The notes below the pieces were generated by a model. It was not told the DNA's origin and did not search any database. It saw nothing but the letters and a program-made list of their open reading frames with translations. Of a DNA stretch of 32,000 bases, positions 7,941 through 30,440 are shown one piece after another. Made by a program: the position numbers and the translations under genes. Origin of the DNA: Edaphobacter aggregans (lineage in GTDB: Bacteria; Acidobacteriota; Terriglobia; Terriglobales; Acidobacteriaceae). Each line of letters starts with the position of its first letter. The first letter of the stretch is position 1. Where the stretch lies: positions 930,001 through 962,000 of the forward strand of contig NZ_RSDW01000001.1 in the NCBI RefSeq assembly GCF_003945235.1, read 5' to 3'.

Positions 7941-8061
7941 CCAAACCCCTTTCAAATATCCAACCGCCATTCTATTGCTAAAAATTGACACCCTAAAAAA
8001 TCGGGCCACGCCATCACCCACCTTGCGTCCGCTCGAACCAGCCCGTACCCTACCAGAAGAC

Positions 8062-8820
8062 ATGCCGTCGAGCCTCGAACTCGCCCTCCTCTCCTGCGCC
8101 CTCCTCGGACTCCGTCATGGCTTCGACTACGACCACCTCGCCGCCATCTCCGACATCACCTCCGTCCAGCGTACTTGGCGCGAAGGCATGCGCCTCGGCC
8201 TCCTCTACGCCCTCGGCCACGCCTTCACCGTCGCCATCCTCGGAGCCGCCGTCATCTTCCTCCACATCGGCCTCCCCGAGCACATGGACGCCATCGGCGA
8301 GCGACTCATCGGCGCCACACTCATCGCTCTCGGTATCTACGTCCTCATCTCCTTCCTCCGCCGCAAACCAGGGCACCATCACCACCACGCCACACCGCGC
8401 AGTCGCATCGCCCTGCTCATATCCGGAGCACGCTACACCCAATGGCGCATTCGTCGCCTCGCCAATCCCACGGCCCCAAAACCCGACCCCTTCACCTTCC
8501 GTTACGACCGCACCTCAGTCTTCACCGTTGGCATCATCCATGGTCTTGGCGCCGAAACCCCCTCGCAACTCCTCCTCTTCCTGCTCGCCGCGAACCTCGG
8601 CGGAACCAGTCTCGGGTTCCTCGGACTCCTCTGCTTCATCCTCGGCCTCCTCCTCATGAACACTCTCATGACAGCCAGCGCCTCCGGCATCTTCGCTTCC
8701 AGCACCCATCGCCCACGCGTCCAGACCGTCGTCACCTCTCTCACCGCCGCCTACAGCTTCATCATCGGAGCCATCTTCCTCTTCGGAGCCAGCGACAAAC
8801 TCCCACCCCTCTTCCACTAA
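8062..8820 (+). CDS. NicO/NiCoT-like nickel(/cobalt) transporter, polytopic membrane protein with His-rich loop
   Basis: Start at ATG 8062 (MPSSLELALL...). H-x4-D-H signature in the first TM region (LRHGFDYDHLAAISD). Cytoplasmic loop KPGHHHHHATPR (His codons 8374-8388). Second-half motif GIIHGLGAETP. Multiple hydrophobic segments. Confidence 0.75.
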   Translation: MPSSLELALLSCALLGLRHGFDYDHLAAISDITSVQRTWREGMRLGLLYALGHAFTVAILGAAVIFLHIGLPEHMDAIGERLIGATLIALGIYVLISFLRRKPGHHHHHATPRSRIALLISGARYTQWRIRRLANPTAPKPDPFTFRYDRTSVFTVGIIHGLGAETPSQLLLFLLAANLGGTSLGFLGLLCFILGLLLMNTLMTASASGIFASSTHRPRVQTVVTSLTAAYSFIIGAIFLFGASDKLPPLFH

Positions 8821-8909: not shown

Positions 8910-8925
8910 AGGGGCTTTAGCCCCT
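8910..8925. repeat. Hairpin aggggc-ttta-gcccct (same family)
   Basis: Perfect 6-bp stem, preceded by an A-run (acaacaaaaa). Confidence 0.45.
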
Positions 8926-8984
8926 GGGGTATGCTCTTCTATGTTGTTCCGGGGCCGTCAATCGATCGTTAGACCTAATTCCCT

Positions 8985-9761: not shown

Positions 9762-9767
9762 ACCCAC

Positions 9768-10778
9768 ATGCTCCGAGTCCCCTACAACGACCTCTACGAA
9801 GCCCTCCACCGCGCCATGCTAGGCCTCGGCCTCCGCGAAGACCGCGGCGCCCTCTCCGCCCGCCTCATCGCCGAAACCACCCGCGACGGCGTCTACACCC
9901 ACGGCCTCAACCGCTTCCCCCGCCTCGAAGCCATGGTCCTCAACGGCAGTATCGACATCCACGCCGAACCCACCCTCACCGCTTCCTTCGGCAGTATCGA
10001 ACGATGGAACGGCAACCGAGGCATCGGCAACCTAAACGCATACGTCGCCATCAATCGCGCCATCACCCTCGCCAAACAAAACGGCATCGGCGGGGTCGCT
10101 CTTGGCAACACCAACCACTGGATGCGCGGAGGCACCTATGGCTGGCTAGCCGCCGAAGCCGGCCTCTTCGCCATCTGCTGGAGCAACACCCTCGCCAACC
10201 TGCCCGCCTGGGGAGCCACGACCCCCACCCTCGGCAACAACCCCCTCGTCATCGCCATCCCCCGCGTCTCGGGCGAACACGTCATCCTCGACATGGCCAT
10301 GTCCCAGTTCTCCTACGGAACCCTCGCCTCCTATGCCAAGCGCAACGAGCCCCTCCCCGTCGACGGCGGATTCGACACCGCAGGCAATCTCACCCGCGAC
10401 GCCGCCGCCATCGAAGCCTCGCAGCGAGCACTCCCCATCGGCTACTGGAAAGGCTCCGGCCTCGCCCTCGTCCTCGACATGATGGCCACCATGCTCTCCG
10501 GAGGCCTAGCCACCCACCAATTCTCCCCCGATCCTCTCCGCGAAACCGGCCAATCCCAACTCTTCCTCACCATCGACCCAACCAACATAACCAGCGCAGC
10601 CGAACTCACCCACATCGCCGACGCCATCATCGACGACCTACACCGCGCCACCCCCGCCGACCCCACCAAACCCACCCGCTACCCCGGCGAACAGACCATC
10701 CAACTCCGCGAAGAAAATCTCCGCCTCGGCATCCCAGTCGACCCCGAAATCTGGCAAAAAATCACCAGCAAGCACTAA
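9768..10778 (+). CDS. Ldh_2 family dehydrogenase, YiaK/DlgD-like (3-dehydro-L-gulonate 2-dehydrogenase type)
   Basis: 336 aa, starting 7 nt after the SDR stop. Collinear with E. coli YiaK as recalled (GVYTHGLNRFPR, NHWMRGGTYGW, GNNPLVIAIP, PVDGGFD..GNLT, LPIGYWKGSGL..VLDM.AT.LSGG). Confidence 0.8.
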   Translation: MLRVPYNDLYEALHRAMLGLGLREDRGALSARLIAETTRDGVYTHGLNRFPRLEAMVLNGSIDIHAEPTLTASFGSIERWNGNRGIGNLNAYVAINRAITLAKQNGIGGVALGNTNHWMRGGTYGWLAAEAGLFAICWSNTLANLPAWGATTPTLGNNPLVIAIPRVSGEHVILDMAMSQFSYGTLASYAKRNEPLPVDGGFDTAGNLTRDAAAIEASQRALPIGYWKGSGLALVLDMMATMLSGGLATHQFSPDPLRETGQSQLFLTIDPTNITSAAELTHIADAIIDDLHRATPADPTKPTRYPGEQTIQLREENLRLGIPVDPEIWQKITSKH

Positions 10779-13200: not shown

Positions 13201-13239
13201 AATCGGTGTCATCGGTGAATATCGGTGTTAAGCCTTTCC
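13201..13239 (+). repeat. Phased repeat array: ATCGGTG x3 at 9-10 bp spacing, ending TTAAGCC, upstream of larE
   Basis: aATCGGTGtcATCGGTGaatATCGGTGttaagcctttcc. A partial extra copy (aatcggtgtaatcagcc) is at 13141-13157. About 29 of 34 hand-aligned positions are identical to 14218-14255. Confidence 0.8.
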
Positions 13240-13282
13240 GCCACCATGGCGGCACCCTCAATCTGTCCTACAATCCAGACAG

Positions 13283-14128
13283 ATGGATCTCGCCGCCAAA
13301 TCCGCTCTCCTCCAAGCCACCCTGCGAGATCTCGGCAGCGTGATGGTCGCCTACTCCGGCGGCACCGACTCCGCCTACCTCGCCTACGCCGCCCGTCAAA
13401 CCCTCGGCGACAAAATGCTAGCCGTCATCGCCGATTCCCCCTCGCTCCCCCGAGCCGAACTAGCCGCCGCCCTCGCCTTCGCCGCCGAACACTCCATCCC
13501 TACCCACATCCTCCAAACCGCCGAACTCGAAAACCCCGACTACCAGCGCAACGACACCCAGCGCTGCTTCCACTGCAAAGACGAGCTCTTCACCCAGATG
13601 GAGCAACTCCGCGCACAAAAAGCCTTCGTCCACATCGCCTATGGCATGAACCTCGACGACCAGGCCCCGTCGGTAGCAGCCTTCCGCCCCGGCCAGCAAG
13701 CCGCCGCCCAGCACCACGCCGTAGCCCCGCTAGTCACCGCTCAGCTCACCAAGTCCGAAATCCGCACCCTCGCCCGCGAAGCCGGCCTCACCCTTTGGGA
13801 CAAGCCCGCCAGCGCCTGCCTCTCCTCGCGCATCGAGTACGGCCGCCCCGTCACCCGCGAAAACCTCACCCAGGTCGAACAAGCCGAAGCCGCCCTCCAC
13901 GCTCTAGGCTTCCAACAAGTCCGCGTCCGCCACCACGGAGACCTCGCCCGCATCGAAATCTCCCGCCCCGAACTCCCCCGCGCCCTCAACATCGAAACCC
14001 TCGACCACATCACCGCCGCCCTCCGCCCCCTCGGCTTCCTCTACATCACCCTAGACACCCAGGGCTACCGCTCCGGCTCCATGAACGAAGTCCTCCCCGC
14101 CACCGCCATCACCCCCGCCACAAAATAA
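13283..14128 (+). CDS. larE: NPN-cofactor biosynthesis ATP-dependent sulfur transferase LarE (PP-loop ATPase)
   Basis: 281 aa. PP-loop AYSGGTDS. ASACLSSRIEYG aligns to the L. plantarum LarE Cys176 region. VRVRHHGDLARIE and YITLD..GYRSGSMN are typical LarE C-terminal motifs. Confidence 0.9.
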   Translation: MDLAAKSALLQATLRDLGSVMVAYSGGTDSAYLAYAARQTLGDKMLAVIADSPSLPRAELAAALAFAAEHSIPTHILQTAELENPDYQRNDTQRCFHCKDELFTQMEQLRAQKAFVHIAYGMNLDDQAPSVAAFRPGQQAAAQHHAVAPLVTAQLTKSEIRTLAREAGLTLWDKPASACLSSRIEYGRPVTRENLTQVEQAEAALHALGFQQVRVRHHGDLARIEISRPELPRALNIETLDHITAALRPLGFLYITLDTQGYRSGSMNEVLPATAITPATK

Positions 14129-14217
14129 GCCCAGCCTTTCGTCATTTGTTGTCATTCTGAGCGGATCGAAGCCCCGCATTTCGCATGTGCAACCACTACG
14201 ACTCCCTCAGTCACTGA

Positions 14218-14255
14218 AATCGGCGTTATCGGTGACAATCGGTGTTGAGCCTTCC
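14218..14255 (+). repeat. Second copy of the phased ATCGG(T/C)G x3 array, upstream of larC
   Basis: aATCGGCGttATCGGTGacaATCGGTGttgagccttcc ends 27 nt before the larC ATG. Confidence 0.8.
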
Positions 14256-14282
14256 ACCCTCTCGCATGAAACAATAACCACT

Positions 14283-15746
14283 ATGCGTATCGCCTACCTC
14301 GACTGCTTCGCCGGCATCAGTGGTGACATGTTCCTCGGAGCCCTCATCGACGCCGGCCTCGACCCGCAGATCCTCCACGACGCCACCGCCGCCCTTACCC
14401 TCGGAGCCTCCCTAAAAATCGAAAAGGTCGATCGCAGCGGCATCTCCAGCACCAAGGTCCACGTCCTTGAGAACGGCAAGCTAGCCGAAGACCCACACAC
14501 ACACCACCCCACCCACACCCACCCTCAAGATCATTTTCCCGGCAAGATCCAAGACCAGCGCCCAGCCGAAGACCACGCCCACCATCACCATCCCAAGACC
14601 CAGCACCTCCACAAAACCGGCCAGCCTCATACCCACGAAGAAGAACATCATCACGACCACCCTCACACCCACGAGCACACCCACGGCCGCTCCCTCACCA
14701 ACATCCGCGCCCTCATCCAATCCGCCAACCTCGCCCCCGAGGTCAAGCAAACAGCCATCAAAACCTTCGAACTCCTCGGAACCTCCGAAGCAAAAATCCA
14801 CAACATAAACATCGAAAAGATTCACTTCCACGAAGTAGGCGCAGTAGACGCCATCGTCGACATCGTCTGCGCCGCCGCCGGAGTCCAAGCCCTCAACATC
14901 GACAAGTGGCACGCCTCCCCCCTCAACGTAGGCGGAGGCATGATCGGCTGCGCCCACGGACGTTTCCCCGTCCCGGCCCCCGCCACCGCCGACCTACTTC
15001 GCGGCCTCCCCACCTACTCGGCCCACATCGAAAAGGAACTCGTTACTCCCACCGGCGCAGCCCTCATCCGCACCCTCGCACCAACCTTCGGCCCCCAGCC
15101 CGCCATGCGTGTCCAGCAAATCGGCTACGGCGCCGGAACCCGCAACCCCAAAGACTTCCCCAACGTCCTCCGCCTAAGCATCGGAGAAGCCGCCGAAGCC
15201 CCCACCACCACCCACTCACACCCAAAAGAAGTGTCATCCCGACCGGAGGCGCACTTTGCCGCCGCAGTGGAGGGACCTGTTTCACCTTTGCAGGATGCCA
15301 ACGCAACAACCGTAACCATCCTGGAAACCGCCATCGACGACCTCTCCCCCCAAATCCTCGCCCACGTCACCGAGTCCGCCCTCCAGCAAGGAGCCTTCGA
15401 CGTCATGTGCACCGCCGTCCAGATGAAAAAGGGCCGCCTAGGCACCCTCATCACCATCCTCACCGACGACGCCCACGCCTCCACCCTCGAACGCCTACTC
15501 CTACGCGAGACCAGCACCCTCGGCGTCCGCATCCACCAGGAGCGCCGCTCCTGCCTCGACCGCACCCACACCACTGTCACTACCCCCTACGGCGAAATCC
15601 GCATAAAAATCGGCTCCCGCAACAACGAAGTCCTCAACGCCGCCCCCGAGTTCGAAGACTGCCGCACCGCCGCCGCAAAGCACAACGTCCCCGTCAAACA
15701 AGTCATCCAATCCGCCACCGCCGCATATCTTCAGGCGAAGCAATGA
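14283..15746 (+). CDS. larC: NPN-cofactor nickel-insertion enzyme LarC (single polypeptide) with long His-rich insert
   Basis: Start placed at ATG 14283 (MRIAYLDCFAGISGDMFLGALIDAGL is the canonical LarC N-terminus). The ORF-track start 14187 is GTG inside repeat DNA. His-rich tract at about 14487-14685. HFHEVGAVDAIVDIV motif. Confidence 0.9.
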   Translation: MRIAYLDCFAGISGDMFLGALIDAGLDPQILHDATAALTLGASLKIEKVDRSGISSTKVHVLENGKLAEDPHTHHPTHTHPQDHFPGKIQDQRPAEDHAHHHHPKTQHLHKTGQPHTHEEEHHHDHPHTHEHTHGRSLTNIRALIQSANLAPEVKQTAIKTFELLGTSEAKIHNINIEKIHFHEVGAVDAIVDIVCAAAGVQALNIDKWHASPLNVGGGMIGCAHGRFPVPAPATADLLRGLPTYSAHIEKELVTPTGAALIRTLAPTFGPQPAMRVQQIGYGAGTRNPKDFPNVLRLSIGEAAEAPTTTHSHPKEVSSRPEAHFAAAVEGPVSPLQDANATTVTILETAIDDLSPQILAHVTESALQQGAFDVMCTAVQMKKGRLGTLITILTDDAHASTLERLLLRETSTLGVRIHQERRSCLDRTHTTVTTPYGEIRIKIGSRNNEVLNAAPEFEDCRTAAAKHNVPVKQVIQSATAAYLQAKQ

Positions 15747-15856: not shown

Positions 15857-16612
15857 ATGAATCCCACGACCCTCCTCCATCTCCTCGCCGAAGTCCAACG
15901 CGGCACCCTCACCCCCGAGCAAGCCTCCGCCCGCCTAGCCGACCTCCCCTTCGAAGACCTCGGCCACGCCAAAATCGACCACCATCGAACCCTCCGCAGC
16001 GGGCTCCCCGAGGTGATCTACGCCGCCGGCAAAACCCCCGCCCAAACCGCCGAAATCTTCTCCCGCATGGCCGCTACCGGTGTCGACGTCCTCGCCACCC
16101 GAGCTGACGAAGCCACAGCCGAAGCCGTCCTCACAGCCATCCCCGCAGCCATCCACCACCCATCAGCGCGAGCCATCACCCTCCGGCAATCCCACGCCGC
16201 CCCTCGCGGCCACGTTGCCGTCCTCTGCGCCGGAACCAGCGATCTCCCCATCGCCGAAGAGGCCGCCATCACCGCCGAGCTCTTCGGCACTCACGTCACC
16301 CGCCACTACGACGTAGGAGTAGCCGGTCTCCACCGCATCCTCGCCCAGCGCGAAACCATCAACCAGGCCAACGTCGTCATCGTCTGCGCGGGCATGGAAG
16401 GCGCACTCCCCAGCGTAGTCGGTGGCCTCGTCGGCGTCCCCGTCATCGCCGTCCCCACCTCTGTAGGCTACGGAGCCAGCTTCAACGGAGCAGCCGCCCT
16501 CCTCGGCATGCTCAACTCCTGCTCCCCCAACGTAACCGTAGTCAACATCGACAACGGCTTCGGCGCCGCCTACACGGCCACGCTAATCGCAAGGATGGCC
16601 CACCACCCATAG
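15857..16612 (+). CDS. larB: NPN-cofactor biosynthesis NaAD carboxylase/hydrolase LarB (PurE-like)
   Basis: 251 aa. LD..R..R.G.PEVIYA.GKT N-terminal region. PurE-like core VAVLCAGTSDLPIAEEA and VIVCAGMEGALPSVVGGLV..PVIAVPTSVGYG. Confidence 0.9.
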   Translation: MNPTTLLHLLAEVQRGTLTPEQASARLADLPFEDLGHAKIDHHRTLRSGLPEVIYAAGKTPAQTAEIFSRMAATGVDVLATRADEATAEAVLTAIPAAIHHPSARAITLRQSHAAPRGHVAVLCAGTSDLPIAEEAAITAELFGTHVTRHYDVGVAGLHRILAQRETINQANVVIVCAGMEGALPSVVGGLVGVPVIAVPTSVGYGASFNGAAALLGMLNSCSPNVTVVNIDNGFGAAYTATLIARMAHHP

Positions 16613-19751: not shown

Positions 19752-20444
19752 CTACTGTCTGCCGCTTCGTTCGACTTGAAGCCCAAACTGACGCAGCATC
19801 TCACGCTGCCCTACACCAGTAACAGCAAGAGCCCTGCTGTCTAAATCCTGCGTCACCCACTTCTTCTTCAGTACAACCTTCAACAAAGCCGCCCCCAGCC
19901 CGCCGCCCAGATGAGGACGCCGCTCACTCCAATCCAGACACGGAAACGCGAACCTTCGTCGCAAACTAAACGTCGCCTCAAGATCGACACCCAGCGACTC
20001 AAATAACTTCACTCCCTTCGGCGTCAGCTCATACGCACGCCCACCATCCTTCTCCCTCAAACATCCCATCGCCTTCAAACGATCATGCAGCGAAACACCC
20101 ACCGTACCAGCCAGATGGTCATAACAGGTACGCGCCGCACACAAGCGGCTAGGAGTATTAGGCACAAACTTTTTCCTCGGAGTACCCACAAGAACACTCA
20201 GCGCCTCCAGCATCTGCGCAACCTCGCTCCCATCCAGACTGTAGTAGTGATGCTTCCCCTGCACCGCCACCTTCACTAGACCAGCCGCCTTCAACCGATT
20301 CAAATGGACACTCGCCGTGGACGGACTCACATCAGCCACCACAGCAAGCTCCGTACTGGTCCTGGCATGCCCATCCATCAGGCAATACAGCATCTTCTCC
20401 CGAGCCGGCTCCCCAATCGCCGCTGCAATCACATGCACTGTCAT
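19752..20444 (-). CDS. ArsR/SmtB-family winged-helix transcriptional regulator with C-terminal extension
   Basis: 230 aa. The N-terminal ~90 aa (EPAREKMLYCLMDGHARTSTELAVVADVSPSTASVHLNRLKAAGLV) are an ArsR-type HTH. Confidence 0.8.
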   Translation of the reverse strand: MTVHVIAAAIGEPAREKMLYCLMDGHARTSTELAVVADVSPSTASVHLNRLKAAGLVKVAVQGKHHYYSLDGSEVAQMLEALSVLVGTPRKKFVPNTPSRLCAARTCYDHLAGTVGVSLHDRLKAMGCLREKDGGRAYELTPKGVKLFESLGVDLEATFSLRRRFAFPCLDWSERRPHLGGGLGAALLKVVLKKKWVTQDLDSRALAVTGVGQREMLRQFGLQVERSGRQ

Positions 20445-21989: not shown

Positions 21990-22013
21990 AAAGCCCCGGC
22001 TCAGTCCGGGGCT
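21990..22013. terminator. Rho-independent-type hairpin between convergent genes
   Basis: aagccccgg-ctcagt-ccggggctt (9-bp stem). The flanking A-run on the plus strand gives a U-run for the minus-strand SDR transcript. Confidence 0.6.
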
Positions 22014-22031
22014 TCACCTGCAAAAAATAAA

Positions 22032-22808
22032 CTACTGATTCACACCACTGGCCAGGAACCCGCCATCCACCACCAGAATCTCTCCCGTAACAAAAGCCGA
22101 AGCATCACTGGCCAGATAGATCGCCGCCCCCACTAGCTCCTCTGTCTTCCCAAAGCGCCCCATCGGAGTCCGCATCAGCAACTCCTTACCCCGCTCGCTC
22201 TCATCCAAAAGTTTTTGATTCAGCGCCGTCCGAAACACTCCCGGAGCAATCGCATTCACCGTCACACCCTTTGCGCTCCACTCCACCGCCAGCGACTTCG
22301 TCAGCGCACCCACCGCCGCCTTGCTAGCCGCATAAGCCGTCACTTCCTTCAACGAAACAAAAGTATTCAGCGAAGCGATATTGATGATCCGCCCATACCC
22401 ACGCTCCAACATATGCTTCCCGAAGATCTGGCAAGCCCGCAGCGTCCCGGTCACATTCGTATCCATGATGTCGTCCCACATCTCTTCCGATACCGTCAGC
22501 GTAGGCTCCCGCTTGATCTTCCCCGCCGAGTTGATCAGAATATCGACCTTCCCAAACTCTTTCACCGTTCCATCCAGCAGTGCCTGGAGCGAAGCCCGAT
22601 CGGCCACATCCGAAGTCAGCCGCAGCGACTTCCGCCCCTTCGCCTCAATCGCCTTGGCGGCCTCTTCCACCTGTTCGGCACGGCGCGAACTCGCCACCAC
22701 ATCGGCGCCAGCTTCTGCCAGACCAATCGCCATCGCCAGTCCAATGCCGGACGTCCCCCCCACCACCACTGCCGTCTTGCCCTTCAGATCAAACAACGGA
22801 TGCCCCAT
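22032..22808 (-). CDS. SDR oxidoreductase, gluconate 5-dehydrogenase / aldonate-uronate reductase-like
   Basis: 258 aa. GGTSGIG, NSAG, S...YAASKAA, VNAIAPG, VVDGG. Last gene of the LarA-like/uxaE/gntK string. Confidence 0.85.
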   Translation of the reverse strand: MGHPLFDLKGKTAVVVGGTSGIGLAMAIGLAEAGADVVASSRRAEQVEEAAKAIEAKGRKSLRLTSDVADRASLQALLDGTVKEFGKVDILINSAGKIKREPTLTVSEEMWDDIMDTNVTGTLRACQIFGKHMLERGYGRIINIASLNTFVSLKEVTAYAASKAAVGALTKSLAVEWSAKGVTVNAIAPGVFRTALNQKLLDESERGKELLMRTPMGRFGKTEELVGAAIYLASDASAFVTGEILVVDGGFLASGVNQ

Positions 22809-22866
22809 CGAAAAATTCCTCTCTAACTTTGTAATCTTCTCTGTTACCAGTCTTCACTCAATCTCA

Positions 22867-23370
22867 CTACCAAATCGGCTCCGACGAGACGTACTCCAGA
22901 ATCTGGCTCACAATCTCCTCTGGGCTACGATCATTCACTATACGCAAAGCATCCTTCGGTGGCTCCAGCGCCTCAAACTGACTCTCCAGCAGCTTCGGAT
23001 TCATGAACTCATGATGCCGCTCCAAAAGCCGCTCCGAGATCATATCCCGGGATCCATCCAGCCAAACAAACTTCACCGCTCCCGTCGGCATTCCCGCTGC
23101 CAGCGTTGCCCTATACCTTTCCTTTAGTGCCGAACACGCCAGCACTCCATTCTTTCCCGCATCAAACCACCCGCGCATCAGTCCATTCAGAGTCTCCAGC
23201 CACGGCTGCCGATCCGCATCATTCAGCGGATGCCCCGCCGCCATCTTCTCCTTGTTCGCCGCCGGATGATAATCGTCCGCATCGGCAAACACCGCACCAG
23301 TACGCTCAGCCAGCAGCGTCCCGATCGTCGATTTCCCCGACCCGGTCACCCCCATCAGCACCACAATCAT
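22867..23370 (-). CDS. gntK: Gluconokinase (GntK/IdnK family)
   Basis: 167 aa. P-loop MGVTGSGKST. FADADDYHPAANKEKMAAGHPLNDADRQPWL and ACSALKERYR match the E. coli GntK pattern as recalled. GGAGAGGA SD. Confidence 0.9.
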   Translation of the reverse strand: MIVVLMGVTGSGKSTIGTLLAERTGAVFADADDYHPAANKEKMAAGHPLNDADRQPWLETLNGLMRGWFDAGKNGVLACSALKERYRATLAAGMPTGAVKFVWLDGSRDMISERLLERHHEFMNPKLLESQFEALEPPKDALRIVNDRSPEEIVSQILEYVSSEPIW

Positions 23371-23393
23371 TCAGACAGTCCTCTCCGTCTTTC

Positions 23394-23414
23394 TACTCCC
23401 TATTCCCTACTCCA
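23394..23414 (-). repeat. Three tandem heptamers TGGAGTA-GGGAATA-GGGAGTA (minus strand) in the uxaE-gntK spacer
   Basis: Plus strand reads tactccc tattccc tactcca. The array begins 5 nt after the uxaE TAA stop. Shares the 15-nt GGAGTAGGGAATAGG with 1979-1999. Confidence 0.8.
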
Positions 23415-23419
23415 GCCTT

Positions 23420-24682
23420 TTATTGTCCTAGAAAAACCGGCTTGATATGGCGATCAAAAAGGTTCGTCGTAACATTACGCGCCACCACAGCTTCATTGGC
23501 CTCGAGCGCATTCAAGTACCGCTCACCCATCTTAGCCGCCACCTTGAAGCCCACATGCAGCAGTTGCCGGAAGCTCGGGTTATACGCCTTGTTGCTCTGA
23601 TCATGGCGCAACGCCGACGTGAACTGCTCACTGGTCCAGCCATTCACCTCTTCCGGAGACGGCAGCTTCGCCGGATCGATATCGATCACCGTCGCATAAG
23701 GAGCGCACAACTCCTCACGATGCGAATACGCCTCCGCATAAACTTCCTTGGCAATCTCCAACCCCGATCCGCCAGCCTCAGCCAGCCCGATCAGCTCTTC
23801 CAGCCAGGTCGTCCCAGCCGTCTTCAAATGCACACCCGCGCCAAACCTCTTCACCGCGTCATGAATCGCCTGATAGATCGAAAACTTGTCCGACCCCGAG
23901 TGAACGCTCAGCTTCAAATTCTCAGGCAGCCCATACGTCTTGATCGCAAACGCAATCGCCGCAAGGTCCTCGTTGAACTCCTTGGTGAACTGCGGCACAT
24001 CCCCTACATAGTCCACGCCCTTGTTGAACCGTCCCGTAAACTTCGGCGCAATCGTCTGGATCGGAATCTTCTCATCCGCAATCGCCGCCAGAATAATCAG
24101 CAGCTCTACCGGAGTCTGAGGATAGTCCGTCTCATCCATCGAGACCTCAGGCACGAAATTCCCCGCACCCTTCTTCTCCACCAGAAACCGATAAATCCGC
24201 CCCGCATCCTGCACCGCAGCCAGAAACTTATTGGCCACGCCCGTCACAAACGCCTCATCCGTCTTGAAAGGCTCGTCGATATGCGGAATCGTCACCGTCC
24301 CCACCAGCTCCGGATGCCGATTCACAAACGCCGCCACATCCTTCGCGTCCGCCGGCTTGCCAATCATCTCCGCCACATCCAGCGTAAAGAAGTCACACGG
24401 CGCCAGAAACCGCTCCACCGTATTCAAATTGATATGGTCCGCATCCAGAAAATAAGGCTTAGTCCACCCCAGCTCCTTCACCGCCGCATCGGCGGCCACG
24501 CGCGTCTGGCTCGGCTCGGAGCCGATAATCATGTGCTCGCGGTTCGACTTGTTCCACACCGGTGAAACCTCAACCCCCGCGTTGGCGGCCATCACACAAG
24601 CCGCAAGCTGCGCCTTCGCCTGATGCGCAAACCGGTCACCCACCCCTACTGAAAATTTAGGAAGTTTCAATCCTTCAGCCAT
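23420..24682 (-). CDS. uxaE: Tagaturonate/fructuronate epimerase (UxaE family)
   Basis: Start placed at ATG 24682 (GAAGG SD); the ORF-track start 24691 is GTG. Motifs FLDADHI, SVHSGSDKFSIY and LKTAGTTWLEE match my recollection of the UxaE family (Thermotoga-type). Confidence 0.8.
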   Translation of the reverse strand: MAEGLKLPKFSVGVGDRFAHQAKAQLAACVMAANAGVEVSPVWNKSNREHMIIGSEPSQTRVAADAAVKELGWTKPYFLDADHINLNTVERFLAPCDFFTLDVAEMIGKPADAKDVAAFVNRHPELVGTVTIPHIDEPFKTDEAFVTGVANKFLAAVQDAGRIYRFLVEKKGAGNFVPEVSMDETDYPQTPVELLIILAAIADEKIPIQTIAPKFTGRFNKGVDYVGDVPQFTKEFNEDLAAIAFAIKTYGLPENLKLSVHSGSDKFSIYQAIHDAVKRFGAGVHLKTAGTTWLEELIGLAEAGGSGLEIAKEVYAEAYSHREELCAPYATVIDIDPAKLPSPEEVNGWTSEQFTSALRHDQSNKAYNPSFRQLLHVGFKVAAKMGERYLNALEANEAVVARNVTTNLFDRHIKPVFLGQ

Positions 24683-24811
24683 TGCCAACACCCTTCTTCA
24701 TCACAAAATCGATTGGTCTAACCACTTTCAACCGTCCCAGCATACTCACTCTAGCCCACAAAGGGCAACTCCCCAGTGAGCTTTAGCATGTACCATCCTT
24801 TTTTCTTGCTT

Positions 24812-24877
24812 TTATCCGCCTTATCCCCTGATCACTGTTACGCCTTTGCTCCGCGCACCTCCGCGTCAATCCGCGGT
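24812..24877 (-). repeat. Phased CGG-repeat element (same family as 13201-13239), between the SGNH stop and uxaE
   Basis: Minus-strand reading: GCGGATTGAC GCGGAGGTGC GCGGAGCAAAG GCGTAACAGTGATCAGGGGATAAGGCGGATAA. Shares atcacYgttacgcc and taatccgcg blocks with 31017-31072. Confidence 0.6.
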
Positions 24878-24879
24878 CG

Positions 24880-26121
24880 CTAGTAAGCAAACAGTGAAAG
24901 AGGAATAGCCTCTCCCATCACCCGATACCCCGCGGCTGAGGGATGAAGGTGATCGCCCGAGTCATACGCAGACAGCATCTGCTCAGGATGAGCCGGATCG
25001 CGCACCACCTTGTCGAAATCCACCACCGCATCAAAGTTCTTCGTCGTCCGAATCCACTGATTGATCGCCTGTCGGTCAGCATCACTCGCCGGACTTGCGC
25101 GATAGTACCCCGACCCGCCAAACGGCAGAATCGTCGCCCCAATCACCTTGATCCCATGCGCATGAGCCCGCAGCGCCATCTGCTCATACGCCGAAAGGAT
25201 CCGATGCACCAGAGCATCATGCTCCGCCTGCCCCACATTCCCCTCGCGCGTAAACGTCCCCAGATCGTTGATGCCCTCCAGCACAATCACATACCGCACT
25301 CCCGCCGGAGCCATCACATCGCGATCGAACCGTGCCAGCGCATTCGGCCCCAGCCCATCCAGCAGCACGCGATTCCCGCCTGTACCCGCATTCAAAACCC
25401 CAACCGTGTGCGTCTTCTTGTCCGCCTGCAGCCGCCGCGCCAGCACATCCGGCCATCGATCATTCCCATTCGTCGTCGAGCCACGACCATCCGTAATCGA
25501 ATCCCCCAGCGTCACAACAGCAGTACCCGGCACTGCCACATCCACACCCGAAACCTGATACCAGTGCTCCACCTTCTTAGCGTCAGGCAAGCTTACCGCC
25601 GAAACCAGGTCCCCATGCGCCACATACGAAGTCGCCCGCGACCCCGGATGCCCCGTCTGCGAAGCAGGAGCCGCATCCATATGCAGCGTAATCACAAGGT
25701 CCGACAACGGCCCTACCGGAAACGCAACCGGATCAGAGATAAACTCCGCGCCCGCAGGCACCGTAACATCCTGAGCCCCGCCAAAAGTCAGAGCCTTATC
25801 CGTAGCCGGATCGATCGCACCACCACCCGCAGCCGCAGGCCGAGCCACATGTACCGCAGTCAAATGCAACGGAGCCGTCCCAAACGCATTCGACACATGC
25901 ACCCGCAACTCAGGCCCACCCACCGATAGATGAACAATCTGCCGCAGCGTAGCATCCCGGAGGTCCTCCGCCGAAAGCGAGTTCTGCGGCTCAGGCAACT
26001 GCTGCGAAGCAGCCCACGAGCCAACCCAGTTCGCAGGCGTGGTCCCCTGCCCCACCGCGGCCACGGGAGCCAAAACGAAGGCCAAACCTAAAATGGAAAG
26101 CGACCCAGTTCTCTTCATCAT
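24880..26121 (-). CDS. Secreted SGNH/GDSL hydrolase (candidate carbohydrate esterase) with N-terminal beta-rich domain
   Basis: Start placed at ATGATG 26121/26118, 7 nt after the LarA-like stop. Signal MMKRTGSLSILGLAFVLAPVAAVGQG. SGNH blocks LGDSITDG, AGTGGN, EGINDL, DHLHP. Confidence 0.8.
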   Translation of the reverse strand: MMKRTGSLSILGLAFVLAPVAAVGQGTTPANWVGSWAASQQLPEPQNSLSAEDLRDATLRQIVHLSVGGPELRVHVSNAFGTAPLHLTAVHVARPAAAGGGAIDPATDKALTFGGAQDVTVPAGAEFISDPVAFPVGPLSDLVITLHMDAAPASQTGHPGSRATSYVAHGDLVSAVSLPDAKKVEHWYQVSGVDVAVPGTAVVTLGDSITDGRGSTTNGNDRWPDVLARRLQADKKTHTVGVLNAGTGGNRVLLDGLGPNALARFDRDVMAPAGVRYVIVLEGINDLGTFTREGNVGQAEHDALVHRILSAYEQMALRAHAHGIKVIGATILPFGGSGYYRASPASDADRQAINQWIRTTKNFDAVVDFDKVVRDPAHPEQMLSAYDSGDHLHPSAAGYRVMGEAIPLSLFAY

Positions 26122-26128
26122 TCGGTAG

Positions 26129-27403
26129 CTAGTCCTTAAACCTTCCCTCATAAGCCCAAAGCCCAAGCCCCGGATTCGAGATATAGAAAATCTCCTCCCC
26201 ATCCACAACATTCCACCCATCCTTCAATTTCTCCGGATCATACTTGGCCGAGTACTCCGCCAGATCCCCATACTCAAAGTGGACGCTCTCGATCTCCTCG
26301 TGCGTCAGGTGTCCCGGACAATACCGAATCGTGAACCGCCCCTCGCTCGACCCGTGAATCAAATGAGCCGCCGCGCTCAAATTCCCCGCCAGCGCCGCAT
26401 CCTCCTTCACCAGCTCTAGCGTCTTCGGAGTCCCGCAATACCCATACTTCCGAATCAGTACATCGATCGCCGCATCCTCGCCAAACTCATGCACCCCCGG
26501 AGCCAGCACAATCAACTCCGCATCGTCAGCCAGAGCCATCCTCGTCCGGTACACGCTCTTATTCCCCAGCCACGTACTCCGAAACTCATGCGGATCAAGA
26601 AACACCACAGCTTTCTTGATCTCCCGATCCATCATCTTAAAGTTAACCTTCAAACTCAGTGCTGCAGCTAACTCAAAACACTCGACATCATCGCCAATAT
26701 AAAGCCCGCGTATCACCAGCTTGCCAGCGTCATTCTTTCCCACCACCGACTGCACATACACAATCGGCAGATTCGTCGCAAAGTGATCGCTCGCATAATT
26801 CAGCACCCGCCGCACCGGAGTATCGGCCCGCCCCATCATCCGTTCCATCCCATACACCGCCCCCAGAAAGTGGCTGCGATGAATCCCAATCGACCCACCC
26901 GTCCCCACAAAGATGTTCTTGTTGTAGTTCGCCATCCCCACCACTTCATGCGGAACCACCTGTCCGATCGACAGAATCAAATCGTGCCCACCATCGCGCA
27001 ACAGCTTGTTCACCTGCGCCGGCCAGCAGTAGTCCACCTTGCCCTCGCTCACCTCATACAGAAACTCTCCCGGCACATCCCCCAGCGTCACGACATCATG
27101 CCGCCAGTCATGCACTCTGAAAAGCTCCCGCGGAGTAGCCCCATACATCGTCGCAATCTCGCTATCGGTCATCGCCTTATGCGTTCCCAGCGCCGGAAGC
27201 ACATCCGTCAGACGATCCCCGTAGTACTGCCACGCCAGCTCCGTCAGCACGCCGCTCTGCGAATGAAACCGCGTAAAGTCCGGCGGTACCGCCAGCACCT
27301 TCTTCCGCTCACCCAGCTTCTCCAGCGCAGAAAACAAACCAGCCTTCACATCGGCGGCAGACATCTCAGTTATCGGACTTCCAGCAGCAAAAAATACACT
27401 CAT
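26129..27403 (-). CDS. LarA-superfamily (DUF2088 / lactate-racemase-like) nickel-pincer-dependent isomerase homologue
   Basis: Start placed at ATG 27403 (MSVFFAAG...). ALGTHKAMTDSEI aligns with LarA ATGFHRPSTHEEL (His108). VVPHEVVGMANYNK aligns with ESHFFAGFSGGRK (His174, Lys184). GIHRSH aligns with MANHS (His200). All compared with the L. plantarum LarA sequence as I recall it. Confidence 0.85.
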   Translation of the reverse strand: MSVFFAAGSPITEMSAADVKAGLFSALEKLGERKKVLAVPPDFTRFHSQSGVLTELAWQYYGDRLTDVLPALGTHKAMTDSEIATMYGATPRELFRVHDWRHDVVTLGDVPGEFLYEVSEGKVDYCWPAQVNKLLRDGGHDLILSIGQVVPHEVVGMANYNKNIFVGTGGSIGIHRSHFLGAVYGMERMMGRADTPVRRVLNYASDHFATNLPIVYVQSVVGKNDAGKLVIRGLYIGDDVECFELAAALSLKVNFKMMDREIKKAVVFLDPHEFRSTWLGNKSVYRTRMALADDAELIVLAPGVHEFGEDAAIDVLIRKYGYCGTPKTLELVKEDAALAGNLSAAAHLIHGSSEGRFTIRYCPGHLTHEEIESVHFEYGDLAEYSAKYDPEKLKDGWNVVDGEEIFYISNPGLGLWAYEGRFKD

Positions 27404-27572
27404 GGCAACCAATCTTACTTGCACCGGACCATGATCCACCAGCCAGCCTTCACCCACGAATCACCACCAGGTGATACCCTTCTCAGCCAAAGAGGTCCAA
27501 AGAGCCAGAGACGCAGCCAGAGACCCCACCCGGGCCCAGTAAGAAAGTTTTCGACGGAGACCGTAGCCACCC

Positions 27573-29030
27573 ATGAAGCGACCATCCATCCTCAGGCCAC
27601 TCCAAAGATGGATCACAGCATCCATCCTTCTCGGGTTCCTCGTCGCCCTCACCGCAGCCATCACTCTGCCCACACACGCCCAAACCACCGACACCCTGCA
27701 TCAAGTCAAAAAGATCTACGTCGACCCCATCACCGGAAAATCCGACTCGACCGCCGCACGCAAGCTAATCATCGATAACCTGCAAAAAGACCACACCGTC
27801 CAAATCGTCGACGATCCCACCCAGGCCGACGCAATCCTGCAAGTCAGGATGGAGACTTGGGTCCGAGGCTATGTCTCCGTCAACCCGCGGTCCACCAGCG
27901 GCTACCCCGCCTATGGCGGCTTCCTCTCCGCACAACTCCTCGGCAAAGGCGGCGATCTTCTCTGGTCCAATATCGTCACTCCCAGCCGATATGCCTCCTC
28001 CGGCATCCGTCACGACCTCGCCGACCAGATCGCCCACAAACTCCTCGTCGCCCTCACCAGCTCGCCCTCCAAAGGCCCTGTCCGCATCCTCAAGGCCGCC
28101 GGCGCCACCTTTCCCGCGCCTCTCTACCTGGCCTGGATAGAGTCCTTCCGCCAGCACCGCCCCGACATTCAGATCACCTACAACAGCATCGGCTCCGAAG
28201 CCGGCCTCGAGCAGCTCCACGACAGCAAAGTCACCTTCGCCGCCTCCGATGTCGCCCTCTCCGACGCCTACATGCGCCAGATGCCCGTAAAGCTCCTCCA
28301 GTTCGCCACCGTCCTCGGCGCCATCGTGCCCGTCTATAACCTGCCCCAGATCGGCAACAACCTCCGCTTCACGCCCGAGATCCTCGCCAACATCTACCTG
28401 GGAAATATCCGCTCCTGGGATGACCCCGCCATCCGTGCCGTCAACCACGGCGTCCCCCTGCCCAGCGCTCCCATCGTCATCATCCACCGCAACGACGGCA
28501 GCGGTACCACCTTCGCCTTCACCGACTTCCTCAGCAAAACCAACCCCGACTGGAAAGCCACCGTCGGCAGCGGCACCACCGTCAAATGGCCCGTCGGCAA
28601 AGGCGTCCAGGGTAACGACGGCGTCGCCGCCAGCGTCGCTGAAACACCCAACTCCATCGGCTACACCGAGCTCACCTACGCCATCCAGCGCCAACTCAGC
28701 TACGGAATCGTCCGCAACGCCGCCGGCAACTTCATGCAGGCCAACCTGGCCACCCTCGCCGCTGCCGCTATCGCCCCTCACGGGACCTCTGCCATCGCCT
28801 CCTCGCTCACCAACGCCCCCGGCAAATACGCCTACCCCATCACCAGCTTCACGTGGCTCCTCGTCCCCGAATCAATCCCCGATCCTGTCACCAAATCCGC
28901 CGTCGCCGACTTCCTCGAATGGATCCTCACCGCCGGCCAGAAGGAAGTCTCAGCCCTCGCATACCACCCCTTACCCAAAGAAACCGTCACCCGCGAACTA
29001 CAAATGCTAGCCGCCTTCAAAGCAAAGTAG
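27573..29030 (+). CDS. PstS-family phosphate-binding protein fused to a ~170-aa N-terminal membrane-anchored domain
   Basis: The C-terminal ~310 aa are PstS-like (GATFPAPLY..W, SIGSEAG, FAASD, RNDGSGTT, IGYTELTYA, YPITSFTWLL). The N-terminus has one TM/signal segment plus an unassigned domain. Confidence 0.8.
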   Translation: MKRPSILRPLQRWITASILLGFLVALTAAITLPTHAQTTDTLHQVKKIYVDPITGKSDSTAARKLIIDNLQKDHTVQIVDDPTQADAILQVRMETWVRGYVSVNPRSTSGYPAYGGFLSAQLLGKGGDLLWSNIVTPSRYASSGIRHDLADQIAHKLLVALTSSPSKGPVRILKAAGATFPAPLYLAWIESFRQHRPDIQITYNSIGSEAGLEQLHDSKVTFAASDVALSDAYMRQMPVKLLQFATVLGAIVPVYNLPQIGNNLRFTPEILANIYLGNIRSWDDPAIRAVNHGVPLPSAPIVIIHRNDGSGTTFAFTDFLSKTNPDWKATVGSGTTVKWPVGKGVQGNDGVAASVAETPNSIGYTELTYAIQRQLSYGIVRNAAGNFMQANLATLAAAAIAPHGTSAIASSLTNAPGKYAYPITSFTWLLVPESIPDPVTKSAVADFLEWILTAGQKEVSALAYHPLPKETVTRELQMLAAFKAK

Positions 29031-29086: not shown

Positions 29087-29100
29087 GGGGCTTCAGCCCC
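29087..29100. repeat. Hairpin ggggc-ttca-gcccc (same family as 8857/8910)
   Basis: Perfect 5-bp stem with tetraloop. A second hairpin cgcagg-N8-cctgcg is at 29045-29064. Confidence 0.45.
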
Positions 29101-29164
29101 GGCCCCTCCCCCGCGCCACAGCAACCAAACGAGACTGTCACAAAACTCTGCGCGGCCCCATTCC

Positions 29165-29179
29165 CATCGCCGGTGTAAC
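29165..29179. repeat. Left arm of a perfect 15-bp inverted repeat (catcgccggtgtaac)
   Basis: Its reverse complement gttacaccggcgatg occurs at 30441-30455. The two arms bracket the only segment of the window with reversed strand composition. Confidence 0.8.
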
Positions 29180-29208
29180 CTCCGAGTTGCCCCACAATAC
29201 GGCAACAA

Positions 29209-30252
29209 CTATTTTTTCGGGGCGTAGGGGCCAGCGGTGGGTTTGCCTTGCGTGTCTTTGAGGGGTCCGAGTTCATCGCCAACTCCGCGGCCGATCGCGA
29301 CGATCTCACTGGCGCTCTGGAAGCAAGTGAAATCGGGCCGATCGCGCCATGCAAATGGGCCACAGAGCCGTTTGCCTGCGCCGAGCGCGGCGTCGTGCAC
29401 GATGTTGATCAGTCGTTCGTAGTCGGGTGAACCCATCTTGTAGCCGGAGAAGTTTGCCAGGTCTCCGCTTGCGGCGAAGATGGCGGTGACGCCTGGAATC
29501 GCGGCGATTGCGCGCGCGTCCTTGACGCCTTCGAGGGTCTCGATCATTTCGACGAGGACGACGTTCTTGTTGATGGTGTTGCGATAGCCGCCAGGGACGT
29601 TGCCCCAGACCAAGGGATCGAAGGCCTGGCCGCCGCCCAGGCTGCGCTTGCCAAGCGGCGGGTACATTGTCCAGTCGCGCGCGGCGGTGCCTTCTTCGAC
29701 GGAGCGGACGGTTGGAATCACGATGACGAGCGCCCCCAGATCCATGGCGTGCTGAATTTCGCGCTCGTCGGTATAGGCGACACGAACGCCGGGTACCGCT
29801 TTGGCGTGGGGACAGGCCTTCCACATGCGGCCGACGGCATCCCAGTCGCGGGCGTTGTGCTGCATCTCGGTCCAGATGAAGTCGTAGCCGGCGTTGGCCA
29901 TGGCACAATAGGTCTCCGGAGTATCAGTGCTGAAGACTGTGCCACCGGTGATCTTATCGCCCTTTATCATCTTGATCATCACTGGATTCCATATGGGTGT
30001 ATCGGGCGAGATATCGTATGCCGGGCCGTACTTCCATTTCGCCGGATCGAATGGGCCCTGGTTGATGGCGGCTGGGGGGGCTGTGGTGATGGCGCCGGAG
30101 TCCTTACCGGCGAGTGCGGCGAGGGGGAATTGTGTTTTGCCCGCGTCGGCGTTATTCGAATAGGGATCGGCACTGGCGGTGGTTTGCGCGTAGGCCTGTA
30201 AGGTGATGCACGTGAGTACCACTGTGAGTGCCGCAGCTGAAAATCGACTCAT
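29209..30252 (-). CDS. HpcH/HpaI-family class II (metal-dependent) 2-keto-3-deoxy-acid aldolase homologue with signal peptide
   Basis: Start placed at ATG 30252 (AAGGGAG SD, 6-nt spacing). Signal MSRFSAAALTVVLTCITLQAYAQ. Family pattern GYDFIWTEMQH, VRV, MIETLEG (metal Glu), AASGDLA (metal Asp). Confidence 0.8.
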   Translation of the reverse strand: MSRFSAAALTVVLTCITLQAYAQTTASADPYSNNADAGKTQFPLAALAGKDSGAITTAPPAAINQGPFDPAKWKYGPAYDISPDTPIWNPVMIKMIKGDKITGGTVFSTDTPETYCAMANAGYDFIWTEMQHNARDWDAVGRMWKACPHAKAVPGVRVAYTDEREIQHAMDLGALVIVIPTVRSVEEGTAARDWTMYPPLGKRSLGGGQAFDPLVWGNVPGGYRNTINKNVVLVEMIETLEGVKDARAIAAIPGVTAIFAASGDLANFSGYKMGSPDYERLINIVHDAALGAGKRLCGPFAWRDRPDFTCFQSASEIVAIGRGVGDELGPLKDTQGKPTAGPYAPKK

Positions 30253-30440
30253 TGCAAACTCCCTTTCTTTGCGAGATGACGATACACGAGGAGGTTGCAG
30301 GCAGAATAGACGGGAGACCCAGGGTATCAATCGAGGGTGAGTCGGTAGAACTATTGCAGAACGTTGTTCCGCGCGTCGTTGCCTTGGCGCAATTATTCCG
30401 TTGTCCCTTGCGATTGTCGATTGTGGACGAATTACCGGCA

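Follow-up and report, generated by a model that had tools for sequence, protein, structure and literature searches.

What does a homologue of the nickel-dependent lactate racemase LarA do when its gene lies among genes for sugar-acid catabolism? The question is raised by a 32,000-nt stretch of the Edaphobacter aggregans genome (contig NZ_RSDW01000001.1, positions 930,001 to 962,000; the whole stretch is called the window below), in which a LarA-like gene, larAH, is found together with genes for an SGNH esterase, a UxaE-like epimerase, a gluconate kinase (GntK) and a short-chain dehydrogenase/reductase (SDR). Because of its family, its signature residues and its conserved gene context, we read its product, LarAH, as a hexonate 2-epimerase, most likely one of the GntE type that interconverts D-mannonate and D-gluconate. 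To this reading, in which the UxaE-like protein, the SDR and GntK would supply the other steps of the route, we assign a probability of about 0.7.

All five open reading frames (ORFs) are on the minus strand, as an earlier note on this DNA, made from the sequence alone, had stated:

26129..27403, minus strand: larAH, 424 aa, group-18 LarA-superfamily enzyme (NF052594, PF09861, signature residues, neighbour-joining tree)
24880..26121, minus strand: secreted SGNH esterase, 413 aa, of the FjoAcXE-like acetyl-xylan-esterase type (GDSL, PDB 7TOG)
23420..24682, minus strand: UxaE-like protein, 420 aa, of a short tagaturonate/fructuronate epimerase subfamily (PF16257, PDB 6IL9)
22867..23370, minus strand: gntK, 167 aa, P-loop gluconokinase of GntK/IdnK type (TIGR01313)
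22032..22808, minus strand: SDR, 258 aa, KduD / gluconate-5-dehydrogenase / UxaD-like (adh_short, NCBIfam, PDB)

From larAH to the SDR gene the intergenic gaps are 7, 197, 49 and 58 nt, so that their description as short holds for three of them but not for the 197 nt ahead of the UxaE-like gene. The UxaE-like and gntK products exceed the cut-offs of PF16257 and TIGR01313, respectively. UxaC, UxuA and Edd domains, which the same note had found missing, are absent from the window ORFs scanned.

A profile search places LarAH above the cut-offs of both NF052594 of NCBIfam (652 bits, cut-off 500; residues 31–435 of the long ORF) and PF09861 (Lar_N; 32.7 bits, cut-off 23.3), the next families being the malate racemase models at just 29 and 20 bits. 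NF052594 is an equivalog model named 'nickel-dependent putative hexonate epimerase' and corresponds to group 18 of Desguin 2020 (PMC7583248). Residues were mapped by a MAFFT alignment that contained the Lactiplantibacillus plantarum LarA sequence from Desguin's Dataset S2 and members of groups 18–20. The residues that hold the cofactor, a nickel-pincer nucleotide (NPN), are kept (D42, R45, K162, H178 and K282, equivalent to LarA D72, R75, K184, H200 and K298), as are the two catalytic histidines, H75 and H152 (LarA H108 and H174). In LarA, Lys184 is the covalent tether of the cofactor and His200 its nickel ligand. The motifs concerned are LGTH (H75), VPHEVVGMANYNK (with VPHE at H152, and K162) and GIHRSH (H178), and the GTH, PHE..NYNK and IHRSH stretches that had made the protein look active are therefore all present, with no loss of the His and Lys cofactor residues in the alignment.

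The substrate pocket differs from that of LarA, with E153, V154, W278 and L279 in place of F175, F176, Y294 and Q295. Group 18 is marked by the residues D R H H E V K H V W L N K and, further towards the C-terminus, S A A L I H S. LarAH agrees with the first series at all 13 of the 13 well-aligned LarA reference positions, N281 and K282 included. Around LarA positions 353–362, near the C-terminus, the MAFFT alignment was unreliable and the stretch was compared directly with group-18 entries; SAAAHLIHGS of LarAH is identical to that of the Acidobacterium capsulatum entry ACP_2683 in Dataset S2. The published GntE signature consists of E, V, A and H, with A and H in helix 14 (PMC11770544). LarAH has E153 and V154 after the catalytic histidine and the AH dipeptide in SAAAHLIH, as in TM0442 of Thermotoga maritima (VAAHVIN) and the Corynebacterium glutamicum enzyme (IAHSTH).

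In a neighbour-joining tree with LarA as outgroup, LarAH stands inside group 18 beside Granulicella AciX9_2072 (83% identity over aligned positions; the AciX9_2072 entry is truncated at ~400 aa) and outside the true lactate racemase clade, group 1. The sister lineage of group 18 is made up of groups 19 and 20, where the proven D-gluconate 2-epimerases GntE1 and GntE2 are placed (PMC7583248). The sole PDB match of LarAH at E ≤ 0.001 (phmmer) is 4NAR, the T. maritima protein TM0442/GntE2 (7e-31), and neither LarA 5HUQ nor any other LarA lactate racemase structure is reached at that threshold. The closest database proteins are 92–97% identical, several of them named Edaphobacter sp.; near-identical proteins number in the thousands, and a diatom group-18 protein is 56% identical. 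One relative has been assayed. This enzyme, LarAH15 from Phytophthora nicotianae, acts as a gluconate 2-epimerase of narrow spectrum, its Km for D-mannonate being 9.4 mM and its kcat 111/s (Urdiain-Arraiza et al. 2024, PMC11770544). The primer used for cloning it encodes MATLLFAEG, and this agrees with how the LarA domain begins in PITG_09435 (MTLLFAEGSKTAELS), a group-18 member in Desguin's dataset; judged by this primer-encoded N-terminus, LarAH15 belongs to group 18.

By its residues, its position in the tree, its structure match and its 17% identity to L. plantarum LarA, LarAH is classed as a LarA-superfamily enzyme outside the lactate-racemase clade and is apparently active. That it is a true lactate racemase, or a racemase of some other small 2-hydroxy acid, lying beside sugar-acid genes by chance is hardly credible. 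Many database entries do name its close homologues 'nickel-dependent lactate racemase' or 'lactate racemase domain-containing protein', and there is the match to Lar_N; nevertheless, the E/V/W/L pocket, the place outside group 1, the low identity to LarA, the curation of the family as a hexonate epimerase and a context conserved across phyla all speak against it. The lactate racemase reading was rejected on pocket residues, tree, curated family, structure search and context, and the earlier proposal of an aldonate 2-epimerase is the one that family, residues and context favour.

The gene context was examined at one genome per species, which gave 80 loci with LarAH proteins 66–92% identical. 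Related loci were defined by a LarAH identity of at least 72% and are mostly from Acidobacteriaceae; 28 of them are at least 15 kb long. Among these 28, larAH and a UxaE-like gene occur together in 19, the latter directly downstream in nearly all, and gntK and an SDR of the window type are each present in 18. Since 19 loci keep the first pair and 18 also gntK and the SDR, the gene order is more than chance. The SDR is 84–95% conserved at the operon end in relatives, and a PfkB kinase occurs in 5 of the 28. A metagenome contig from the JGI (L081), one of two species-level relatives (L081 and L082), has 95.9% DNA identity to the window over 15 kb.

A second set comprised 26 loci from other phyla (Ignavibacteria, Bacteroidota, Planctomycetes and others), covered with a reach of 10 kb. 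Here tblastn detects a D-mannonate oxidoreductase-like SDR in 21 loci, four example proteins scoring 356–375 bits on NF006132 (cut-off 281), and 6-phosphogluconate dehydrogenase (Gnd) is found in 22. PfkB kinase is present in 17, UxaC in 11 and UxaE, canonical or short, likewise in 11. In a Melioribacter locus (L055) the order is MFS transporter, UxaC, UxaE, Eda, mannonate oxidoreductase, PfkB, LarAH, Gnd, transketolase, KduI and KduD; in an Anaerohalosphaeraceae locus (L049) it is UxaE-like, mannonate oxidoreductase, LarAH, PfkB, Gnd, UxaC and TRAP transporter. Because the group-18 homologue (LarAH18) is recurrently sandwiched between D-mannonate-making and 6-phosphogluconate-consuming enzymes, the comparison supports a role for LarAH18 in carrying mannonate, or some mannonate derivative, over into the gluconate series. 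This sandwich of mannonate oxidoreductase, LarAH and Gnd is the strongest computational evidence of our analysis.

The PfkB protein, similar to kinases of 2-keto-3-deoxygluconate (KDG), is encoded directly beside LarAH18 in several loci, both from other phyla and from some Acidobacteriaceae (L055 8865–9947, L049 11342–12415, L034 8863–9939 and L001 12746–13813). It stands next to 6-phosphogluconate dehydrogenase, where the window and T. maritima have gluconate kinase. Its role may be that of an alternative kinase for hexonates, or just that of KdgK in the kduI/kduD branch.

Within the window, a context that would supply mannonate (UxaE-like protein, SDR) and consume gluconate (GntK) is present. 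The UxaE-like protein scores 164 bits on PF16257 (gathering score 27.1; profile positions 80–466 of 475) and matches Cohnella UxaE, PDB 6IL9, at 2.5e-27; the catalytic Glu126 and Asp159 of ClUxaE correspond in the alignment to its E49 and D82, if an offset of one residue between chain index and residue number is allowed for. In other phyla, UxaE-like proteins of 51–61% identity adjoin mannonate oxidoreductase and LarAH18, and the short form stands where canonical UxaE does in equivalent loci. The kinase scores 158.1 bits on TIGR01313, above the cut-off of 113.75. For the SDR, the NCBIfam scores are 260 bits for KduD, 254 for gluconate 5-dehydrogenase and 232 for D-mannonate oxidoreductase, all below the respective cut-offs, and its PDB matches, 4Z9Y, 5U9P and 1VL8, lie at 184–198 bits. 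The last of these (184 bits) we take to be T. maritima TM0441/UxaD. We infer that the SDR is a fructuronate reductase (D-mannonate oxidoreductase). Hence the chain that the earlier note drew, from tagaturonate through fructuronate, mannonate and gluconate to 6-phosphogluconate, agrees with the families of LarAH, the UxaE-like protein and GntK, but its assignment of fructuronate reduction to the SDR is one that no curated model makes.

Several observations weigh against a D-mannonate/D-gluconate epimerase. UxaC, Gnd and a hexuronate transporter are missing from the window, and in the acidobacterial relatives they are missing from the 10-kb surroundings as well. The UxaE-like protein lacks ~80 N-terminal residues of canonical UxaE, whose full length is about 475–517 aa, and matches no model in an NCBIfam scan; the SDR reaches no curated cut-off, with the KduD and gluconate-5-dehydrogenase models slightly above that for mannonate oxidoreductase. 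The only group-18 member assayed, the oomycete LarAH15, is eukaryotic (PMC11770544), and the name of NF052594 in NCBIfam still says 'putative'. The Km values of known GntEs for D-mannonate are high, at 9–120 mM, and Desguin et al. suggested that some GntEs may prefer another substrate (PMC7583248). Finally, gluconate and mannonate are the sole hexonates listed in the reactions of the published substrate panel for LarA homologues.

Two other substrates have to be weighed in this light. In one scheme the kinase would act first: the GntK-type enzyme (PfkB-type in other phyla) would phosphorylate D-mannonate, and the LarA homologue would be a 6-phospho-D-mannonate 2-epimerase. Such a sequence has a precedent in extracts of Lactobacillus suebicus, which convert mannonate via 6-phosphomannonate into 6-phosphogluconate, the epimerase gene being unidentified (PMC6978723); our literature search for 6-phosphomannonate epimerase genes found no later paper naming the L. 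suebicus gene. The high Km of known GntEs for free mannonate would fit this order, as would a kinase that is nearly always beside LarAH18, accompanied in other phyla by 6-phosphogluconate dehydrogenase. However, three enzymes of the GntE branch, the group-18 oomycete protein among them, turn over unphosphorylated mannonate at 59–197 per second, the kinase of the window exceeds the cut-off of the gluconokinase model, and PfkB can be explained as the KDG kinase of the kduI/kduD/eda branch in the same loci. Moreover, the candidate that the authors discuss for L. suebicus resembles an aldose or glucose-6-phosphate 1-epimerase and is not of the LarA type (PMC6978723). We regard phosphorylation ahead of epimerization as decidedly improbable.

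Alternatively, LarAH might act on some other uronate-derived 2-hydroxy acid, with mannonate/gluconate as a side reaction; the pairs considered are L-gulonate/L-idonate, D-altronate/D-allonate or an aldarate. L-idonate would then feed 5-ketogluconate, gluconate and finally GntK. Fungi turn L-gulonate into L-idonate by a two-enzyme oxidation and reduction at C2, for which a LarA enzyme could need a single step, and this counts in favour of that pair. So do the best scores of the SDR, on KduD and gluconate-5-dehydrogenase-type models, the GntK/IdnK type of the kinase, and the presence nearby of an aldo-keto reductase and a 3-dehydro-L-gulonate 2-dehydrogenase equivalog. High Km values were seen in all assayed GntEs, the published panel lists one hexonate pair alone, and uronic or aldaric substrates have been raised for GntE1 by Desguin et al. 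(PMC7583248). On the other side, the adjacent SDR in other phyla is of the bona fide D-mannonate oxidoreductase type, the most constant partner is the UxaE-like gene, whose product would form fructuronate, no L-idonate 5-dehydrogenase is found in the cluster, and the oomycete enzyme of group 18 combines a narrow spectrum with a respectable kcat/Km on mannonate. A different hexonate is thus quite unlikely. For the bacterial members of group 18 as a whole, it is unlikely that the physiological substrate is 6-phospho-D-mannonate or another uronate-derived hexonate such as L-gulonate/L-idonate in place of free D-mannonate. In the first case LarAH would be the missing 6-phosphomannonate 2-epimerase of the L. 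suebicus-type pathway. With either substrate, the adjacent kinases, GntK here and PfkB in other phyla, would come ahead of the epimerase or use some other product.

LarAH is predicted to depend on a supply of nickel and NPN. The window holds the following candidate genes for this purpose:

13283..14128, plus strand: larE, ATP-dependent sacrificial sulfur transferase for NPN synthesis (TIGR00268, 306.6 bits, cut-off 150)
14187..15746, plus strand: larC, nickel insertion (cyclometallase) (PF01969, 458 bits; TIGR00299 and NF052512 above cut-offs)
15857..16612, plus strand: larB, nicotinic acid adenine dinucleotide carboxylase/hydrolase for NPN synthesis (NF033503, 289 bits, cut-off 175)
7975..8820, plus strand: NicO/NiCoT-like membrane protein, tentative (PF03824, 27.5 bits, cut-off 27.7)

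The nickel supply set named by the earlier note is therefore there, with larE, larC and larB above curated cut-offs and the NicO-like gene just under its own. An ORF at 13225–14160 that overlaps larE in another frame has no profile matches. The NicO-like protein contains an RHGFDYDH motif and an HHHHH loop (PGHHHHHATP) and weakly matches NicT/HoxN; it is a candidate nickel/cobalt transporter or exporter near the lar genes. In 8–11 of the 28 related loci, larE, larB or larC lies within 10 kb of larAH, typically just past the SDR gene; for larB and larC the count is 9–11. Between the lar genes and the operon, an ArsR/SmtB-type metalloregulator is encoded at 19752–20444 on the minus strand (NF033788, 55.6 bits, cut-off 55); at 230 aa it has about twice the usual length, and it is conserved in L081.

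The proposed mechanism would then run as follows. With NPN made by LarB, LarE and LarC, H75 or H152 of LarAH would deprotonate the 2-hydroxyl group while hydride passes from C2 to the pyridinium of NPN, which would be tethered by K162 and coordinated by H178. From the resulting 2-keto-hexonate intermediate, hydride would return to the opposite face, with the other histidine donating the proton. In the cell, hexuronates from pectin and glucuronoxylan would be isomerised to tagaturonate or fructuronate, no UxaC having been found in the window; the UxaE-like enzyme would convert tagaturonate into fructuronate, the SDR would reduce fructuronate to D-mannonate, LarAH would invert C2 to give gluconate, and GntK would form 6-phosphogluconate for the pentose-phosphate or Entner-Doudoroff (ED) pathway.

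Whether the five genes form a single operon headed by larAH, as the earlier note had it, was approached through their transcription signals. Four elements were recognised:

27412..27418, minus strand: heptamer GTAAGAT, 8 nt ahead of the ATG of larAH (conserved in related loci)
24739..24768, minus strand: promoter-like TTGCCC (24768–24763), 18-nt spacer and TATGCT (24744–24739), upstream of uxaE (sequence reading)
24712..24726, minus strand: palindromic operator-like site AGTGGTTAGACCAAT (TGGT-N3-ACCA; alignment conservation)
21990..22015, minus strand: intrinsic-terminator-like hairpin after the SDR gene, a 10-bp stem with 7 GC pairs followed by the T-tail TCTGTTTTTG

The region upstream of uxaE was aligned for nine genomes, with a mean column identity of 41%. 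Just two elements are conserved in this spacer, a TAT(G/T)CT box, invariant as TAT.CT in all nine, and 13 nt downstream of it the palindrome (T/G)TGGTnnGACCA(A/G), whose columns are also invariant. The promoter-like boxes are identified by phylogenetic conservation; a consensus promoter scan of the minus strand gave nothing meaningful, the TTGCCC–TATGCT element being below threshold. In the window, AGTGGTTAGACCAAT follows the -10-like box at a distance of ~13 nt and precedes the uxaE start by 30 nt, and it is the single TGGT-N3-ACCA site found there. Across Acidobacteriaceae, the palindrome recurs 30–57 nt upstream of the UxaE-like gene in 22 related genome loci, and L081 and L082 have it too (loci concerned: L001–L027, L038, L056, L081 and L082); in L002, L018 and L054 it is found also, or instead, 41–53 nt upstream of larAH. 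TGGT-N3-ACCA is typical of operators of the FadR/GntR type, including those of the hexuronate regulators UxuR and ExuR. The site looks like a GntR/FadR-type operator and is a candidate for one; a GntR-type regulator gene was sought in the enlarged larAH-uxaE spacers of L025 and L002 and not found.

Upstream of larAH, an alignment of 10 genomes has a single conserved element, GTAAGAT, 7–9 nt before the ATG, in which GTAA.AT is invariant and the remaining G is kept in 9 of the 10. No Shine-Dalgarno-like sequence precedes larAH. Possibly larAH has a promoter of its own, with GTAAGAT as -10 box, and its mRNA is leaderless or nearly so. An Rfam scan of the whole window found nothing, so that neither the 197-nt gap nor the region ahead of larAH holds a riboswitch.

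In favour of one five-gene operon are the common strand and the fact that the cluster's sole terminator-like hairpin follows the SDR gene. The 197-nt gap with its conserved box and palindrome, and a spacer that accepts foreign genes, speak against it. Because uxaE-gntK-SDR has its own conserved promoter-like element and palindrome, a single operon is doubtful, and two transcription units, larAH(-SGNH) and uxaE-gntK-SDR, are probably the better description. The former would be transcribed from a promoter near the start codon of larAH, and the latter from a promoter overlapped by the palindrome. The picture of larAH heading a five-gene operon is not supported, given also that the spacer is variable and that its SGNH gene is found at none of the 80 related loci.

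The SGNH gene itself, between larAH and uxaE, is present solely in the window and its species-level relatives L081 and L082. Its product has a signal-peptide-like N-terminus, MMKRTGSLSILGLAFVLAPVAAVGQG, with GDSL Pfam matches, and aligns with PDB 7TOG over residues 27–411 (1.4e-104). The structures 7TOG–7TOK are FjoAcXE-like acetyl xylan esterases made up of a CBM-like and an SGNH domain (PMC9105624). A longer ORF with its start at 26220 was rejected, the true start being the ATG 7 nt after the larAH stop. Elsewhere, a 69%-identical homologue adjoins a glucuronoyl-esterase-type gene. The spacer of larAH and uxaE, which in the window (24683–26128) holds this acetyl-xylan-esterase-type gene, contains a secreted metallophosphoesterase-like gene in L025 (6282–7645) and a PEP-CTERM protein gene on the opposite strand in L002 (11276–12068), and so appears to have repeatedly taken up unrelated secreted-protein genes. 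Because it is restricted to one lineage and the spacer holds other genes in other lineages, the SGNH gene is best regarded as a lineage-specific passenger in an intergenic region, with no predicted step in the core pathway. On account of its signal peptide, its homology to acetyl xylan esterases and its restriction to one lineage, a role as an intracellular pathway enzyme, for example a lactonase, was rejected. Thematically the protein is nevertheless related, with a predicted role in the deacetylation of glucuronoxylan.

By its annotated genes, the window also encodes a KDG branch for unsaturated uronates, giving a predicted two-branch layout as in the Melioribacter locus L055. This sugar-acid island spans 25–10778:

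25–1239: alginate-lyase-family gene
1313–1972: eda
2006–3223: KDG-kinase-like PfkB
3109–3939: kduI equivalog
4056–5699: esterase
5801–6568: borderline KduD, near the cut-off
6861–8063: GFO/IDH/MocA oxidoreductase
8985–9761: D-xylose-1-dehydrogenase-like SDR
9768–10778: 3-dehydro-L-gulonate 2-dehydrogenase equivalog

On the other side of larAH, a PstS equivalog (341 bits) is encoded divergently at 27573–29030 on the plus strand; its ORF has ~170 residues before the binding domain, and the same 485-aa product occurs in L081. The strand asymmetry of the window (1–32000) is extreme, with 12630 C versus 6447 G on the plus strand and a GC skew of about -0.3 to -0.45 in nearly all 1-kb bins, independent of gene orientation. 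At codon position 3, plus-strand genes have 63–74% C and minus-strand genes 45–60% G. L081 (1–17227), which was independently assembled, has a skew of the same magnitude, 0.31; in more distant relatives it has the same sign and is weaker and patchier. The single compositional exception is an HpcH/HpaI aldolase-like gene on the minus strand (29100–30330), which has a skew of about 0 to +0.2 and third codon positions rich in C, opposite to its neighbours and likewise in L081, which suggests a recent inversion or acquisition.

How much of this is new? In T. maritima, a gnd-uxaR-uxaE-uxaD-gntE-gntK operon is induced on pectin (PMC3750489); the uxaE-uxaD-gntE-gntK route is credited in later papers to a proposal by Rodionova in 2012 (PMC7583248, PMC3750489), and GntE activity was demonstrated in 2020 (PMC7583248). 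According to Valk et al., Rodionova had also noted gntE homologues in Acidobacterium and Terriglobus in 2012 (PMC6978723). The earlier note's view of a distinctive pathway is thus not upheld: the route matches the T. maritima scheme (PMC3750489, PMC7583248), and the LarA-like family is already named in NCBIfam. Both clusters unite the same four roles, namely a UxaE-type epimerase, an SDR reductase, a LarA-type epimerase and a gluconate kinase, and share 6-phosphogluconate as end product; gnd is part of the T. maritima operon and lies beside LarAH18 in other phyla. GntE2 (TM0442, LarAH20, 4NAR) shares the superfamily and the catalytic and NPN-binding residues with LarAH, but is 27% identical and belongs to group 20 instead of 18. 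Unlike the T. maritima cluster, that of the window has an N-terminally shorter UxaE-like protein and linked larBCE, and is without gnd, a uxaR-type regulator and pectinase genes. Its kinase is of the small P-loop GntK/IdnK type, and TM0443 presumably belongs to a different kinase family.

Other characterised systems are more distant or less complete. LarAH15 is of the same group 18 but eukaryotic and without operon context. From the named members of NF052594/group 18 (ACP_2683, Acid345_4308, AciX9_2072), LarAH, a full-length member with an identical signature, differs in nothing essential. C. glutamicum GntE1 (LarAH19) shares the GntE branch, the E-V pair after the catalytic histidine and a uronic-acid gene context, but is 26% identical; its Km for mannonate is 120 mM, and its authors suspect a different native substrate (PMC7583248). 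L. plantarum LarA (5HUQ) has in common with LarAH the dependence on larB, larC and larE (predicted for LarAH) and the presumed proton-coupled hydride transfer, but differs in the four pocket residues (F175E, F176V, Y294W and Q295L), in clade and in gene context. The mannonate kinase/6-phosphomannonate 2-epimerase pathway of L. suebicus likewise leads from hexuronates through mannonate to 6-phosphogluconate, but with kinase and epimerase in reversed order compared with our reading of the window, and nothing shows its epimerase to be of the LarA type (PMC6978723). A literature search combining Acidobacteria, lactate racemase and uronate found nothing further. Hence the LarAH cluster extends an established scheme; the exact sequence is new, while the pathway and the family are already known.

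What our analysis adds is the association, seen across phyla, of group 18 with D-mannonate oxidoreductase and 6-phosphogluconate dehydrogenase, the physical linkage of larBCE in Acidobacteriaceae, the reading of the SGNH gene as an insertion, and a conserved TGGT-N3-ACCA operator-like site that can be used for finding the regulator. If our reading is right, the aerobic Acidobacteriaceae that abound in soil would need nickel and NPN for the catabolism of uronates from pectin and xylan, and these uronates would feed 6-phosphogluconate rather than KDG. This would be relevant both to soil carbon cycling and to the engineering of redox-neutral galacturonate use.

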